Positions 1 through 5,991 of a stretch of DNA of 5,991 nucleotides are shown here, in pieces. This DNA is from a virus. Lineage: Duplodnaviria; Heunggongvirae; Uroviricota; Caudoviricetes. Position numbers and translations under genes: made by a program. Position 1 is the first letter of the stretch, and each line of letters begins with the position of its first letter. The stretch is from the IMG/VR virus record IMGVR_UViG_2744054978_000003, one strand, 5' to 3'. Below the pieces are notes generated by a model. The model saw only the letters and a list, made by a program, of their open reading frames with translations. It was not told where the DNA came from and searched no databases.

Positions 1-40
1 TTTTTAAAGTATCGTCACACACCCAAGAATTACACAAAGT

Positions 41-70
41 CGTTCTTCTGCGGCGTCAAAGTGGTATAAA
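41..70 (+). promoter_or_regulatory. Candidate extended -10 promoter on the plus strand upstream of the 149-172 terminator
   Basis: TGgTATAAA at 62-70 (TG-n-TATAAA extended -10) with a weak -35-like CGTTCT/GTTCTT about 17 nt upstream. Could drive a ~95-nt transcript ending at the plus-strand terminator. Confidence 0.25.
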
Positions 71-148
71 AGACAGCCATTCCGCAAGGTGTTTTAACAA
101 ATCAAAAGGGGTTTTAATAACGGGCTTAAAGCTGAAAGCTTTCCGGAC

Positions 149-172
149 CCCCCAGCCTATCTGGGGGTTTTC
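149..172 (+). terminator. Plus-strand intrinsic terminator, convergent with the lom terminator
   Basis: CCCCCAG (149-155), loop CCTAT, CTGGGGG (161-167), followed by TTTT (168-171). Ends a plus-strand transcript coming from the left edge of the window. Confidence 0.55.
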
Positions 173-179
173 TGGTCCC

Positions 180-206
180 AAAAAAGCCCGCCTGAACCGG
201 CGGGCT
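180..206 (-). terminator. Intrinsic terminator downstream of lom
   Basis: Plus-strand AGCCCGCC (185-192), loop TGAACC, GGCGGGCT (199-206), an 8-bp stem. On the minus strand it is followed by a 5-U tract (complement of A-run 180-184). Lies 26 nt downstream of the lom stop codon. Confidence 0.65.
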
Positions 207-232
207 GTCATAACACTGTGTTACCTGGCTAA

Positions 233-832
233 TCAGAATTTATAACCGACACCCACGATGAAACCGTCAGTGCGCCAGTCGCCACTGCCGGAGCCTTCAT
301 AAGCAATATCAATGGCCACGGATTCGGTCGGGTTAAACTGCACGCCAGCTCCCCACGCCAGAGACGTGTTGCTGTGGCGACCGTCATCACTTCCGGTCAG
401 CACATCGTGCGTTTTCCCCTTGTTGTCAGTTACGCGAAGATAATCCCCGGAGAAAGTCGACACACGGCTGTAAGCCACACCCGCCATCGCATACGTGCTG
501 AACCATTCATTCACGCGCACAGACGGCCCCGCCATTACGCTGAACCAGCGGTTACGAACGGAATCTTCATGCCAGCGGGTATCGCTGTAACGGGTAAGCT
601 GGCGATTCTTGTCTCCTGCATAGCTGAATGACGTAACCATTCCCAGCGTGTCCGTAAACTCATAACGGTATTTCACGTTAATCCCGTTCAGATCATCACT
701 GCCGGGAACGTTCGTCGAGGCATGAAGATACCCCGCGCTCAGCGTGGACTGATGTTCAGACGCCCATGCAGGCGCACCGGATACGGCCAGACAAATGGCT
801 GCGGACAAAATTGCTGCACAAACTTTACGCAT
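233..832 (-). CDS. lom: Lom outer-membrane protein (Ail/Lom/PagC/OmpX family 8-stranded beta-barrel)
   Basis: 199-aa minus-strand ORF, ATG at 830-832 (complement), TGA at 233-235. Signal peptide [24 protein letters not shown], then ...[11 protein letters not shown]...[10 protein letters not shown]... and a C-terminal aromatic residue (..VGVGYKF) typical of outer-membrane barrels. Closely matches lambda Lom as I recall it. Located immediately downstream of J as in lambda. AGAGG Shine-Dalgarno-like sequence upstream. Confidence 0.95.
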
Positions 833-856
833 AATTACCTCTCGCTTTTCTGCAAT

Positions 857-880
857 AAAAAAGGCGTCATTCCTGACGCC
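857..880 (-). terminator. Intrinsic terminator-like hairpin between the J stop and the lom start
   Basis: Plus-strand GGCGTCA (863-869), loop TTCC, TGACGCC (874-880), a perfect 7-bp GC-rich stem. On the minus strand the hairpin is followed by a 6-U tract (complement of A-run 857-862). On the plus strand it is followed by CTTTATT, so it may act in both directions. Confidence 0.6.
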
Positions 881-902
881 CTTTATTGGGGTTATAAATA
901 TT

Positions 903-3900
903 TCAACGAATACTGATGCCGGAAGCAGCTTTTTTGGTCACAATCACCGTACAGTCGGTGATATTGCCTGCCCCCTGATTGCCTTTCTGGAAAATCTTAA
1001 ACTCCAGAGTGACGCTACCACCACCACTAGGCATATCAATAACTGCACTGTAACTACCGGGAATGGCCCCTTTAGTTTCTCTGGATGCGATTAATACGCC
1101 GTTTTTGCGAACTTCAAAACCATAACCCGTGTATCGCGTGCCTCCTGGGTTATTTCCGCTCCCCGGATCGTCATACGCTATACCGTTAAAAATAATGGGC
1201 GGAATAATTATCTGGCGGTCAAAGTTATGATCATCGCTGATGGTGACTGTAACCGTACCGTTTGGTGTTTCCGTGTTACCCCACGTACCGACTTTTTTCG
1301 GGAAGGCTTTTGATACAGCTTTAACGAAATCCCCTCTGACCTGGGTCGCCTCCAGCATGCCCTTAATCGTACAGTTCTGGTTAATCGTGACATTGTTGAG
1401 CGTTCCTGAGTTCGCATTCACACTGCCACTGATATCCGCATTTTTAGCGGTCAGCTTTCCGTCTGATGTCAGGGAAAATACCGGAGGACTGCCACCGCTG
1501 GTAATGGTGGGGGCCGTCAGGCGCTTCAGGAACACGTCGTTCATGAATATCTGGTTGCCCTGCGCCACAAACATCGGCGTTTCATTCCCGTTTGCCGGGT
1601 CAATAAACGCGATACGGTTAGCGGCAACCAGAAACTGGCTCAGCTTGCCTTCCTCCGTGTCCTCCATGCTGAGGCCAATACCCGCGACATAATGTTTGCC
1701 GTCTTTGGTCTGCTCAATTTTGACGCCCCACATGGCATTCCACTTATCGTTAGCATCCTTCCACTCTTTCGAAAACTGCTCCAGTTTGCTGGCGTTATCC
1801 TCCGTCAGATCGACTTTTTCCAGCAGCTCCTTGCCGAGATGAGATTCGGTTATCTTGCCTTTGAAAAAATCCAGGTAACCTTCCGCATCATCGCTCGCCC
1901 GACCGACGGCCTCCACGAATGCCGATTTGCCAACGGTGTTCACACTGCGGATATAAAAGTAATAATCATGGCCCGGTTTGATATTGATACTGGCGGCTAT
2001 CCAGTACAGCCCCGTGCCAAGGTAGCGGGCTGTGGTTTCAACCTGCCTGATATCGGCAATCCGCGTTTCCGAGAACCAGAACTCAAACTGTACCGTCGGA
2101 TCATAAACCGCAAGATGCGGCGTGGCAGTTATCTGAAAATAGCCCGGCGTCAGCTCAATCCGCGACGGCGCTGCCGGGGCGGCAATCCGGAACGATACCG
2201 ATGCCGGATCGCCCTGCTGTCCCCACGCATTTACCGCCCGGACCGTCAGCGTGTAACGCCCCAGCGCCAGTTGCCTGAAGCGGTATGTGGTTTCCGTCGT
2301 CCGGGCCGTGCTGACCAGCCGCTCACTGCCGTCATCCGCTGTTACGGTCAGACGGAGCAGGAAGCTCACGCCCTTCACCACCTTCGGCGTGTCCCAGCGC
2401 GCCAGCACCTGATATTCCCCGCTGTCTGCGGTGACTTCGGCGGTCAGGTGCTGCACCGCTGGCGGCGTGACACCATTCACCGTGCCGCTCTGGTCGCCGT
2501 CAAAGTGCGCCCCGTTATCCACGATGGCCTCTTTTTCCGGTACATGCTGCACGGCGGTGATGGCATACGTGCCGTCGTCGTTCTCACGGATACTCACGCA
2601 GCGGAACAGGCGCTGGCGCAGCGTCGGCAGCTTCAGCCCCCACACGCTGTATTCAGCAACGCCGTCAGGAACACGGCTCACTTTCACCTTCACGCCGTCG
2701 GTGACGGACTGAACCTCCACGCTGACCGGATTGCCACTTCCGTCAACCAGGCTTATCAGCGTGGTGCCGGAAGATGGCAGCGTGATTTCACGGTCGAGCG
2801 TCAGCGTCCGGGTCTGGCTGTTCACCGCCAGCACGCGCCCGCCGGTGCTGATACCCGCATAGTCATCATCGCAGATTTCAATGACATCGCCCGGTACATG
2901 GCGAAGCCCTTCTGCGCCCACGCTGAAATCCACTGTCTGCGTTTCCAGCAGTTCTGTTTTAATCAGCCACAGCCCGGCGCGGTGTGCCTGCCCCCGACTG
3001 GTACAGCCAAAGGCATCCATTTTCGTGACGTTACGACCGTAACGGGCAATGGCCTGCGTATCTTCAACCAGCTCTGTCGCCGTCTCCCAGCCGTTATCCG
3101 GGTCAGTCCAGTTCACCTCAACGGCATTATGGCGGTCTTTCAGGGCGCTGAAGCTGTAGCGGAACGGCGCGCCATCATCCGGCATCACCACATTACTGCG
3201 GTTATAGGTCCACACCTTATCCGACGGTCGGTCCTGCACAAACGTCAGCGTCTGCCCGTTCCATACCGGCATACAGCGCATCGCCGAGCAGAAATCACTG
3301 AGCACATCCCACGCCTTGCGCTGTGTGGTCAGCCAGGCATTACAGGTGATGCGCGGCTCCGTGCCACCAAAGCCATCCGGCACCGACTGGTCACAATTCT
3401 GGCCGATGACATACAGCGCCCATTTGTCCACATCCGCCGCACCAAGACGTTTCCCCATGCCGTAGCGCGGATGGGTCAGCATATCCCACAGACACCAGGC
3501 CATGTTGTTGCTGTATGCTGGCTTAAACGTTCCGTCCCAGATACCGCTGTATTGCCGCGTCTGCGGGTTATAGTTCGACGGCACCTGCAGAATGCGCCCG
3601 CGAAGATGATAATTACGGCTCACCTGCTGGCTGCCGAACTGCTCCGAGTCCACCTGCACGCCGACCAGTGCCGTGTTCGGGTAGCACTGTTTCACATCGA
3701 TGATTTCGGTGTATGACGACCAGAGCGTTTTGTTCTGCAGCTGGTCTGTGGTGCTGTCCGGCGTCATCCTGCGCATCCGGATATTAAACGGGCGCGGCGG
3801 CAGGCTACCCACCACCACCGAGGCCAGATACTGCGAGGTGGTTTTGCCCTTAATGGTGATGTCTTTTTCCGTCACCCAGCCACCGTTACGTTGTATCTGA

Positions 3901-4316
3901 ACCAGCAGACGGACTTCCGACGGATTCCTGTCACCCTTTGAGGTGGTTTCCACCAGTGCCTGTACACCGAAGGTAAAGCGCAGACGGTCGATGTTTGCCG
4001 ACGTGATGGTGCGGGTGATCGGCGTGTCATATTTCACTTCCGTACCCAGCACAGTCTCGGAGCCGGAGGATTCAAAACCTTCCGGCGGTGTCTGCTCCTG
4101 CTCACCTGCCCGGAACACCACCGTGACGCCGGAGATGTTGGTATTCCCCTCACTGTCCAGCACCGGCGTACTGTTCAGCAGCACGCTTTTTAATCCATCC
4201 ACCGGACCTTCAATCGGCCCTTCACTGATGGCATCGATCACACTCAGCAGCTGCGTGGACTTCAGGTTGTCCTTCGCTTCGCGCGGGGTATGCCCCTTAC
4301 TGCTACCTTTACCCAT
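903..4316 (-). CDS. J: Tail tip attachment / host specificity protein J (lambda gpJ-like central tail fibre), 1137 aa
   Basis: Uninterrupted 1137-aa minus-strand ORF, ATG at 4314-4316 (complement), TGA at 903-905. N-terminus [45 protein letters not shown] is the lambda J N-terminus as I recall it. Size is close to lambda J (1132 aa) and it sits between I and lom. GGAG/GAGGA Shine-Dalgarno-like sequence directly upstream of the start. Confidence 0.97.
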
Positions 4317-4327
4317 TCCTCACACTC

Positions 4328-4358
4328 CATAAACAACAAAGCCGCCCAAAAGGCGGCT
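4328..4358 (-). terminator. Terminator-like hairpin between the lipoprotein moron and the J start (possible moron 3' boundary)
   Basis: Plus-strand AGCCGCC (4340-4346), loop CAAAA, GGCGGCT (4352-4358). On the minus strand it is followed by UUUGUUGUUU (complement of 4331-4340), an interrupted U-tract, so terminator strength is uncertain. Sits 24 nt downstream of the lipoprotein stop and just upstream of the J ribosome-binding site. Confidence 0.35.
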
Positions 4359-4382
4359 CATGAGTTACGGCAGGATTAACTA

Positions 4383-4721
4383 TTATTTACATGCATTAAC
4401 ACTATCAGCAAAAATTTTTGGCGTTAATGCTGGTACGCGTTCATAAAGAGTAAAACTACTGCCATTTCCTGCTTTTTTGATATCAAGCACAACATCATAC
4501 CCACCCATAGCCTGTGGAACTAAAAGGCTTACCCCATTCTCAATAGGAATGGATGTTATAGGTGTTCCATTACCAGCCCATTGTCTGGATATGCAGCCTG
4601 ACAATTCATCAATATTTTTTAATGAATTACCTTCCATTACAGGCTTGCCGGATTTTACGTAATCCAAAGATTTACATCCTGTTAAGGCAATAATCGTGCA
4701 GAATAAAATCGTTTTGTTCAT
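4383..4721 (-). CDS. Small predicted outer-membrane lipoprotein (moron), 112 aa from ATG; function unknown, candidate superinfection-exclusion / receptor-masking factor
   Basis: Minus-strand ORF with ATG at 4719-4721 (complement) and TAA at 4383-4385. N-terminus MNKTILFCTIIALTGC is a lipoprotein signal peptide with lipobox L-T-G-C; mature protein begins C-K-S (Lys at +2, no Asp retention signal, so outer-membrane sorting is predicted). The region is clearly AT-rich relative to flanking I and J. The ORF track offers an upstream TTG at 4731-4733, but the ATG is the more plausible start. No strong Shine-Dalgarno was seen. Confidence 0.7.
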   Translation of the reverse strand: MNKTILFCTIIALTGCKSLDYVKSGKPVMEGNSLKNIDELSGCISRQWAGNGTPITSIPIENGVSLLVPQAMGGYDVVLDIKKAGNGSSFTLYERVPALTPKIFADSVNACK

Positions 4722-4760
4722 ATAGCTAACCAACAGAATAATTATCAGTGTTCGATATAA

Positions 4761-4788
4761 ATATTAAATCAGTTAGAACATGAGTAAA
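4761..4788 (-). promoter_or_regulatory. Candidate sigma70-type promoter for the lipoprotein moron
   Basis: On the minus strand: TTTACT (complement of 4783-4788), 16-nt spacer, TAATAT (complement of 4761-4766), in the AT-rich gap between the I stop and the lipoprotein start. Hexamers were picked by eye in AT-rich DNA, where chance matches are frequent. Confidence 0.3.
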
Positions 4789-4793
4789 TAATA

Positions 4794-5435
4794 TTACCGC
4801 CCAATTACCACAACCTGACCACCATCCCCTTCATCTGCCGTGCTGATCTCCTGAGATGCCACACGTGACCCCACGCGCATTTCACCGTACAGAACAGGCA
4901 GGACATTGCCTTGGGCAACCATGTTATCCAATGAGGAAAAATAGGTATTTTGCTTACCGTTATCAGTGGCTGACACTTTAGGCGTTTTGGCTTTCGGTGC
5001 CAGCATCTGCGCAACACCGCCTAAAACCATACCTGCCCCAAGAGAGAACATGAGATTACTTGCAACAATACTAAGCCCCGGCATCCAGATTGCCGTAGCA
5101 ATTAGCGCCGCACCCAGCACTGCCTGAAAAATACCGCCACTTTTGGCACCCGCCAGACGCGGTACGATGTGGATCACGGCACCATTTGCCAGCGGCTCAT
5201 TAAGACGGGCAGATAATTCGTTTTCGCCTGCATCACGCCCGGAAATGCGCACCTGATACCAGCCCTCATTCAGTTTCTGGCGAAACGCCGGAAGCTGCGT
5301 GGCCAGCGCCCGGATGGCTTCAGCCCCCGTTTTCACACGAAGGTCGATGCGGCGACCAAATCGTTGTAAATCCCCGTAAAGGCAGATGCGTGCCATGCCC
5401 GGTGACGCCAGAGGGAGTGTGTGCGTCGCTGCCAT
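4794..5435 (-). CDS. I: Tail assembly protein I (lambda gpI-like)
   Basis: 213-aa minus-strand ORF, ATG at 5433-5435 (complement) preceded by a GAGAGAGG Shine-Dalgarno-like run, TAA at 4794-4796. N-terminus MAATHTLPLASPGMARICLYGDLQRFGRR and C-terminus ...GNVLPVLYGEMRVGSRV...GGQVVVIGR match what I recall of lambda gpI. The start lies 103 nt inside the 3' end of K in another frame, the same overlap arrangement as lambda K/I. Confidence 0.9.
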   Translation of the reverse strand: MAATHTLPLASPGMARICLYGDLQRFGRRIDLRVKTGAEAIRALATQLPAFRQKLNEGWYQVRISGRDAGENELSARLNEPLANGAVIHIVPRLAGAKSGGIFQAVLGAALIATAIWMPGLSIVASNLMFSLGAGMVLGGVAQMLAPKAKTPKVSATDNGKQNTYFSSLDNMVAQGNVLPVLYGEMRVGSRVASQEISTADEGDGGQVVVIGR

Positions 5436-5991
5436 TTGTCGGTATACCTCTCTCGTTTGCTCAGTTGTTCAGGAATATGGTGCAGCAGCTCGCCGTCACC
5501 ACAGTAAATGGCGGCATGATTCGGCACCGATGAACCAAAACAGCACAGCAGCACATCGCCCGGCTGCGCCGCTGACAACGGCACCTGATACAGCCCTGTG
5601 GCCTCCAGATTATCCAAATAGAGATTCTGACCGTTACGCCACCAGTCATCCTCGCGATGAAAATCCGGCATCTCAATCCCCGCCAGATGGTAAGCATCCC
5701 GGAACAGCGTGTAACAGTCCGTCACCCCGTGCTCAAAGCGCCGCCCGGTAAGATGTGGCACACAGCGGAACTTGTAAATCGCCCCCCGGCAGACCAGCCA
5801 CCACGGCAAATCACTCTGCACCTGCAGCCGCCGATCGGCCTCACTCAGCCAGGGCAGACCACCGGGGTGACTGTGGACCAGCGCCACAATCTCACCCTGC
5901 ATTTCTGCCTGCAGCCAGTCCTCCGGCGACATCCGGAAATACTCTTCCGGCTCACCGGAGATATTCACGCAGGGAAAATATCTTTCCCCCT
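5333..5991 (-). CDS. K: Tail tip assembly protein K (lambda gpK-like), 5'-truncated by the window edge; MPN/JAMM domain followed by an NlpC/P60-like domain
   Basis: Minus-strand ORF ends at TGA 5333-5335. The ORF track starts it at GTG 5966-5968, but the frame stays open to 5989 (G-E-R-Y-F-P-C upstream), so the true start is probably outside the window. Contains an exact JAMM metalloprotease motif H-x-H-x7-S-x2-D (HSHPGGLPWLSEAD) and a downstream Cys/His segment (GVTDCYTLF ... NHAAIYCGDGELLHH) typical of NlpC/P60. Sits upstream of I and J as in lambda. Confidence 0.9.
   Translation of the reverse strand, partial: GERYFPCVNISGEPEEYFRMSPEDWLQAEMQGEIVALVHSHPGGLPWLSEADRRLQVQSDLPWWLVCRGAIYKFRCVPHLTGRRFEHGVTDCYTLFRDAYHLAGIEMPDFHREDDWWRNGQNLYLDNLEATGLYQVPLSAAQPGDVLLCCFGSSVPNHAAIYCGDGELLHHIPEQLSKRERYTDKWQRRTHSLWRHRAWHASAFTGIYNDLVAASTFV

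Follow-up and report, generated by a model that had tools for sequence, protein, structure and literature searches.

A probable IS200 left-end remnant with its terminator hairpin lies directly behind lom in a lambdoid prophage

What kind of DNA lies between the lom gene and the left end of this prophage sequence, and does it encode a small RNA? The sequence that we analysed, referred to below as the window, is the whole stretch of 5,991 nucleotides from the viral record IMGVR_UViG_2744054978_000003. The first-pass annotation proposed that positions 41-172, downstream of lom, hold an orphan small transcription unit on the plus strand, in which an extended -10-like element at 62-70 and a clean intrinsic terminator (stem 149-167 plus TTTT) would delimit a non-coding RNA of ~95 nt. 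Our results point to another origin. Window 76-180 is very probably the truncated left end of an IS200 element (nt 1-105), placed right behind the lom terminator's T-run, and we met no evidence that contradicts its identification as an IS200 left end. Because IS200 is a known kind of element, the unit is not an orphan, and the locus is an ordinary mobile-element remnant.

The window carries minus-strand tail genes of a lambdoid prophage, including J (4316..903) and lom (832..233), the latter encoding an Ail/Lom outer-membrane beta-barrel protein of 199 amino acids. Exact copies of the J and Lom proteins are encoded in E. coli assemblies, and BLAST aligned window 179-5991 to many E. coli prophages at 97-98% identity. 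Downstream of lom, on the same strand, a terminator scan, folding and comparison with empty sites revealed an intrinsic terminator with an 8-bp stem at 185..206 and a T-run at 184-180, whose fold has an energy of -18.2 kcal/mol (z = -4.7). Prophages free of the IS match the window only from 179 rightwards, at 97-100% identity. The border of prophage homology is therefore 179/180, and the empty-site comparison shows that the IS200 end abuts the T-run of the lom terminator. The first-pass annotation had also allowed for a module boundary in this region, and that suggestion was borne out by the border at 179/180.

BLAST, alignments, a coordinate map and Rfam were used to define the remnant at 76..180, whose tnpA-sense strand is the minus strand of the window. 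A search with window 76-178 found the IS200 left end at 9,558 places in 2,470 of the 5,426 complete E. coli genomes, at up to 96% identity, and plasmids of E. coli, Salmonella and Yersinia also matched the IS200 fragment. Compared with nt 1-105 of copies from E. coli, Salmonella and Yersinia, window 76-180 is 86-96% identical, the values for the IS200C copies of E. coli being 92-96%. The alignment consisted of eight sequences, the window and seven IS200/IS1541 copies from these three groups. For the numbering we set the left-end hairpin to its published position, nt 12-34, so that window position equals 181 minus IS200 nt. When intact copies were numbered in this way, the second inverted repeat fell at nt 70-138 and tnpA began with its ATG at nt 145, as in the published map (Ellis 2015).

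The window has in common with IS200 of the IS200/IS605 family (IS200C and IS200F of E. coli and Salmonella, IS1541 of Yersinia) the hairpin at nt 12-34, a small second hairpin, and a position directly after a T-run or terminator. It differs from the full-length element of 707 bp in that only the first 105 nt are present, the window containing neither SD nor tnpA nor the right end with its own hairpin, which would fall left of position 1, and in the terminal 11 nt, where it departs from E. coli IS200 copies at 2-3 positions. The insertion site is shared with the complete IS200C of ST131 prophages: ST131 genomes carry this element, with tnpA on the minus strand, at exactly the same site after the lom terminator. 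The left end of the ST131 IS200C is ~92% identical to the window fragment and differs from it in the terminal 11 nt, suggesting that the two insertions may be independent or old. At the ST131 locus in NZ_CP033884.1 (4744454-4752618), the complete IS200C follows lom at locus positions 3016-4165, and a truncated pseudogene of a tail-fibre N-terminal part comes next.

A T-run abuts the tnpA-upstream side of seven of the eight aligned IS200/IS1541 copies, the window included, which fits the report that terminator-like sequences are over-represented immediately upstream of IS200/IS605 elements (PMC13548323). In both the window and ST131, the T-run beside IS200 is that of the lom terminator. The IS copies of K_EC180 and DSM 103246 follow closely on fadR and topA, genes that are oriented in the same direction. 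In DSM 103246 (NZ_CP019944.1, 1005-1492), IS200 is located between cysB and topA and its tnpA is frameshifted; as an artefact of this frameshift, the CDS has been annotated as reaching into the 5'UTR stem-loop.

The most conspicuous part of the remnant is the IS200 left-end hairpin (nt 12-34), which occupies window 147..169 with its stem at 149-155/161-167. It can be read on both strands, was found by the scan and by folding, and makes up the Rfam model's first helix. On the plus strand, the scan reported a stem of seven pairs, six of them G-C, with a 5-nt loop and then TTTTCTGG. A TTTT run at 168..171 (plus strand; sequence and scan) completes a canonical intrinsic terminator, that is, a G+C-rich hairpin followed by UUUUCUGG. 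The plus-strand fold of 143-176 has an energy of -19.0 kcal/mol (z = -2.9), a value equalled by 2 of 200 shuffles. The clean intrinsic terminator of the first-pass annotation is thus confirmed by the scan and by this fold. On the minus strand, the hairpin has an energy of -15.7 kcal/mol and is followed by GUCCGG, without a U-run. All eight aligned copies keep the left-end hairpin, and the Rfam alignment indicates that the one in the window has two pairs weakened relative to the consensus. In the passages of Ellis 2015 and Ellis 2017 that cite Beuzon 1999, the left-end hairpin is described as a strong bidirectional Rho-independent terminator that stops ~85% of impinging outside transcripts. We take terminator activity in both directions from this literature, also on the minus strand, where no U-run is present. 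Beside the hairpin, at 128..142, lies a small conserved one, AAAGCU-GAA-AGCUUU, which was recognised from Rfam, the alignment and folding and corresponds to the second helix of the Rfam model. It is weak (-3.5 kcal/mol) and includes the homologue of the tnpA start site (~nt 40, ~window 141, minus strand; start site from Ellis 2015).

Termination is most likely the sole plausible activity of this dead IS200 fragment, and we infer no dedicated function for the remnant beyond it. On the minus strand, the IS200 hairpin would back up the lom terminator, 13 nt behind it, against read-through. On the plus strand, the hairpin and UUUU would halt transcripts arriving from the left and so keep them from entering lom and J in the antisense direction. 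A comparable situation is found in Salmonella, where STnc290 and STnc440 are stable RNAs that end at the IS200 left-end terminator (Sittka 2008). There, as in the window, an IS200 hairpin lies downstream of a host gene and can give flanking transcripts a new 3' end. However, STnc290 and STnc440 run in the tnpA sense, from the upstream gene to the hairpin, whereas the RNA proposed in the first-pass annotation runs in the opposite direction; and unlike the genes in the Salmonella setting, lom has a strong terminator of its own 13 nt before the hairpin. These results matter chiefly for annotation. Where no gene is present, as in the stretch after lom, a clean terminator can mimic an sRNA gene, and the one described here is the built-in terminator of the IS200 fragment. 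On plasmid pS163-2.4 (NZ_CP058713.1, 780-1492), the left-end hairpin region of IS200 has a changed sequence (CCCCCCCCCAGTCTAGCAGGGGG). The gene ltrA, for a group II intron reverse transcriptase, starts ~90 nt beyond the altered hairpin, suggesting an intron insertion at the terminator hairpin of that copy.

We then asked how far the IS200 sequence extends to the left. With all seven aligned copies, similarity ends at window 76, equivalent to nt 105, a position within the loop that closes the tnpA 5'UTR stem-loop. In the alignment, homology stops after ...CTTGCGG..TGGC, again at IS200 nt 105, and window 1-75 does not continue with nt 106 onwards; among the BLAST matches listed (9,558 places in all), the best E. 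coli ones likewise start at window 76. Nt 1-11, the terminator and the tnpA start-site region (~nt 40) are thus kept in the window, together with the stem-loop's left arm. This arm comprises nt 70-99 of the repeat at nt 70-138 and is found at window 82..111 on the minus strand by alignment, map and folding. Alignment and folding showed that the right arm of the stem-loop, the SD, and the tnpA ATG (nt 145) with its reading frame are absent from 1-75, and none of the frames of 1-75 contains a TnpA-like N-terminus. A divergent IS200 leader and tnpA start was considered for 1-75 and discarded, there being no SD, ATG, right arm or TnpA-like N-terminus. An internal, MITE-like deletion was discarded as well, short-word BLAST against full IS200C having returned chance words only. 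The remainder of IS200 appears to have been replaced by unrelated DNA at window 75/76, and owing to this replacement the window copy would be unable to make transposase or genuine art200. The term truncated could stand for a deletion, or for the insertion of another element with the rest of IS200 further left.

The loss of art200 bears directly on the proposed small RNA. STnc490 was found as an Hfq-bound RNA mapped antisense to the IS200 transposase start (Sittka 2008). It was renamed art200 and described as an RNA of ~90 nt that starts at nt 153/154, runs antisense to tnpA and blocks tnpA translation (Ellis 2015). In an intact copy at the lom site, art200 would be a plus-strand RNA of ~90 nt and would therefore resemble the RNA of the first-pass annotation in strand and size (~95 nt). 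In the window, the surviving part is the 3' ~42 nt of art200 (nt 105 down to ~64), at 76..117 on the plus strand, where the 3' end at ~nt 64 follows from the published start and the length of ~90 nt. Its promoter, start site, 5' half and long hairpin are missing, as is its complementarity to the tnpA SD and start codon. The positions equivalent to the promoter and start site, window 27/28 and leftwards, are non-homologous DNA, and the window copy has no SD or ATG, so that complementarity in cis to the SD and to tnpA's first three codons is not found. Folding reflects the same loss. The art200 stretch of an intact copy forms a long hairpin and then UUUU (-35.5 kcal/mol, z = -4.96), whereas the equivalent stretch of the window forms no long hairpin (-13.5 kcal/mol, z = 0.14). 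Intact IS200 copies do make a ~90-nt RNA at this place on the equivalent of the plus strand, and to that extent a small-RNA unit was rightly suspected; but the art200 promoter and start lie beyond the truncation at 76, and the hairpin is lost.

The Rfam result has to be read with the same care. Family RF01405 (STnc490) matched window 169..45 on the minus strand with 60.5 bits, above the gathering cut-off of 56, and the score comes from model positions 1 to ~78; intact IS200/IS1541 copies gave 140-153 bits with the same model. Nothing credible was obtained from other Rfam families in window 1-1000. The RF01405 consensus represents the tnpA-sense strand, IS200 nt 12 to ~135, and its matches in the window and in intact copies alike are all on the tnpA strand (window 45-169; L021 1471-1594; L023 671-794; L024 671-794). 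The minus-strand label is therefore no argument against a plus-strand RNA, because the model is tnpA-sense and the published RNA is antisense; the label is that of tnpA and should not be taken as the direction of the sRNA. An automatic Rfam annotation would call this locus STnc490 on a marginal score, although the copy cannot make STnc490. In the structure and Rfam check suggested in the first-pass annotation, RF01405 passes its gathering cut-off, and 75-176 folds with z = -0.43.

That annotation derived the start of its RNA from the -10-like motif TGGTATAAA at 62..70 on the plus strand. The motif is present and is the sole TGNTATAAW in the window. It has the TG and matches the hexamer TATAAT at five of its six bases, the exception being the conserved T at the end; no -35 element was seen upstream of it by eye, and a sigma-70 promoter scan reported no promoter at 62-70. 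Its occurrence does not exceed the level of chance, as 0.27 copies of TGNTATAAW are expected and at least one was found in 43 of 200 dinucleotide shuffles of the window. The motif lies in non-IS200 DNA, 6 nt from the junction. Since it belongs to the unrelated 1-75 and the hairpin belongs to IS200 76-180, the two differ in origin, and their combination into one unit in the first-pass annotation does not hold. We conclude that TGGTATAAA is a feature of unrelated flanking DNA, not the art200 promoter or part of a conserved sRNA gene. Overall, the earlier observation is partly confirmed, and its interpretation was only partly supported, because the locus does belong to a real sRNA-bearing element but the copy is truncated and the promoter cited is not that of the element.

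Window 1..75, the DNA joined to IS200 nt 105, matched nothing in the collections searched. BLAST of 1-80 or 1-110 gave no match for 1-75 in 5,426 complete E. coli genomes or 72,556 plasmids, and BLAST of 1-240 against phages gave no match left of 76. Exact and codon-degenerate patterns from 1-78 were found in no species-representative genome, metagenome or viral contig. Look-ups of exact J, Lom, protein I and a 51-aa ORF reached many E. coli prophages, none with the 75/76 junction. This last ORF lies on the minus strand at 56-211, passes through two terminator hairpins and is probably spurious. A second frame, frame 1 of the plus strand, is open from position 1 to a TAA at 67-69 (FLKYRHTPKNYTKSFFCGVKVV). 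It is missing from the list of ORFs because it runs off the end of the window. With these two frames, the earlier statement that the left end has no ORF in any frame proved to be not quite accurate. The 22-aa peptide of frame 1 has no Pfam, NCBIfam or PDB match, and tblastn with it found nothing in phages. A prophage-encoded anti-sRNA was considered for the C/A-rich run at 15-40 and dropped, nothing being left in its support once the IS200 identity was clear.

One lead concerns the bases next to the break. Read on the minus strand from 76 to 58, starting exactly at the break, CTGTCTTTTATACCACTTT shares 14 of 19 positions with the mosaic end of Tn5, CTGTCTCTTATACACATCT, and it agrees with 9 of the 11 positions common to the outside and inside ends of IS50. 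The stop codon of the IS50 transposase lies inside the inside end. The Tn5 transposase was confirmed to end in ...MAQGIKI, and the window peptide ends in ...CGVKVV with its stop 7 nt inside the putative end. The window (58-76 only) therefore resembles the 19-bp ends of IS50/Tn5 in its 14/19 match at the break point and in a stop just inside the end, as in IS50; it differs in five mismatches and in having no detectable protein or DNA homology. A Tn5-end pattern search with a limit of three mismatches accordingly gave no match at 58-76. Of the marks of an IS4-family (IS50-like) terminus, a CTGTCTCTT... repeat and a DDE transposase, the window offers a 14/19 match by eye and 22 visible codons only. 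One possibility is that window 1-76 forms the end of a so far undescribed IS that lies within IS200. If the IS50-like lead is true, a second IS would have landed inside IS200 and the -10-like TATAA would belong to a transposon end; and if 1-75 is the end of such an IS, it would represent a minor new mobile element.

These observations allow the other readings of the locus to be weighed. The one that we regard as possible, if unlikely, supposes that a plus-strand gene enters from the left and ends at the TAA at 67-69, with the IS200 hairpin as its terminator and 70-171 as its 3'UTR. In one version, an IS4/IS50-type IS end (1-76) landed in IS200 at nt 105 and its transposase stop lies inside the terminal repeat. 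This reading is compatible with the explanation of 76-180 as an IS200 remnant. The open frame 1 over 1-69 and the sharp IS200 break at 75/76 are in its favor, as are the resemblance of CTGTCTTTTATACCACTTT to the Tn5 end (14/19, anchored at the break) and the placement of the ...CGVKVV stop, which is similar to that of the Tn5 transposase stop inside the inside end. However, 22 open codons arise by chance about 1 time in 3, the peptide is without a match in Pfam, NCBIfam and PDB, no IS DNA matched in the 5,426 E. coli genomes or 72,556 plasmids, and the mismatches to the Tn5 end, a resemblance spotted after the fact, exceed three. Activity on the opposite strand is improbable. Here a weak tnpA promoter (start ~nt 40, ~window 141) would give rise to a shortened tnpA-leader RNA, comparable with the regulatory RNAs that derive from the 5'UTR in Salmonella. 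The remnant does retain the first 105 nt, and with them the start-site region and ~65 nt from the beginning of the leader, the Rfam model is in the sense orientation, and the first 50 nt of tnpA are enough to repress SPI-1 genes in Salmonella (Ellis 2017). Against this, the tnpA promoter is intrinsically weak and undefined (Ellis 2015), the copy no longer has the processing sites and stem-loop that yield the stable 90/110-nt species, invF as the known target belongs to Salmonella, and the scan found no minus-strand terminator within 1-140.

We consider it very improbable that the stretch is a stand-alone plus-strand sRNA gene as first proposed, in which the motif at 62-70 starts a ~95-nt RNA at ~77 that ends with the hairpin and UUUU at ~171. 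Given the identity of the locus, such a transcript would be a chimeric junction RNA made up of the 3' part of art200, an antisense of the tnpA leader and the left-end terminator. Motif and hairpin both exist at a suitable spacing, the plus-strand hairpin with its U-run is a canonical terminator, and the RNA would be complementary to nt 40-105 of tnpA mRNAs from intact IS200 copies in the same genome. But the motif is expected by chance (43/200 shuffles), has neither the final T nor a -35, and was not called by the promoter scan; the RNA at 75-176 on the plus strand folds, as a whole, no better than shuffles (z = -0.43); and conservation gives no sign in its favor, because 1-75 was found nowhere else. 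The tnpA terminal loop, moreover, sits at the break point, and the M1 mutation showed this loop to be critical for art200 pairing (Ellis 2017). A more specific proposal, which we rate as highly unlikely, is that the break put a fortuitous outward -10 6 nt from the 3' segment of art200, so that the locus makes a chimeric ~95-nt plus-strand RNA that ends at the IS200 terminator and could act in trans on tnpA mRNAs of intact copies or on leader-derived sRNAs. The fortuitous -10 of this proposal might lie within the terminus of an IS4-like element not yet described. There is similarly little likelihood that the 75/76 junction is non-biological and arose from a chimeric assembly or from foreign or engineered DNA linked within a repeat. 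Such an origin would fit the finding that 1-75 matches nothing in the collections searched whereas 76-5991 is ordinary E. coli DNA, the multi-copy nature of IS200, a repeat where assemblies break, and the failure of exact J, Lom or I proteins to lead to a contig with the 75/76 junction. Assembly errors, however, usually fall at repeat borders and not inside a repeat, and the E. coli accessory genome is open, with rare elements being common.

Two further features of the tail-gene region were observed. Between J and lom, at window 857-891, lies a further hairpin that is flanked by a T-run on either side (AAAAAAGGCGTCA..TGACGCCCTTTATT). In the minus-strand direction this hairpin has the form of an intrinsic terminator after J, suggesting that lom would need its own promoter, and the region gave weak, sub-threshold Rfam matches to STnc40, STnc420 and STnc50. 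Between the gene for tail assembly protein I and J, a minus-strand ORF of 112-116 amino acids is found at 4383-4733. Its counterparts in related prophages have no Pfam domain on record; the ORF matches phrog_914, a family of unknown function (E = 6.5e-33), and its position is kept in many related prophages.
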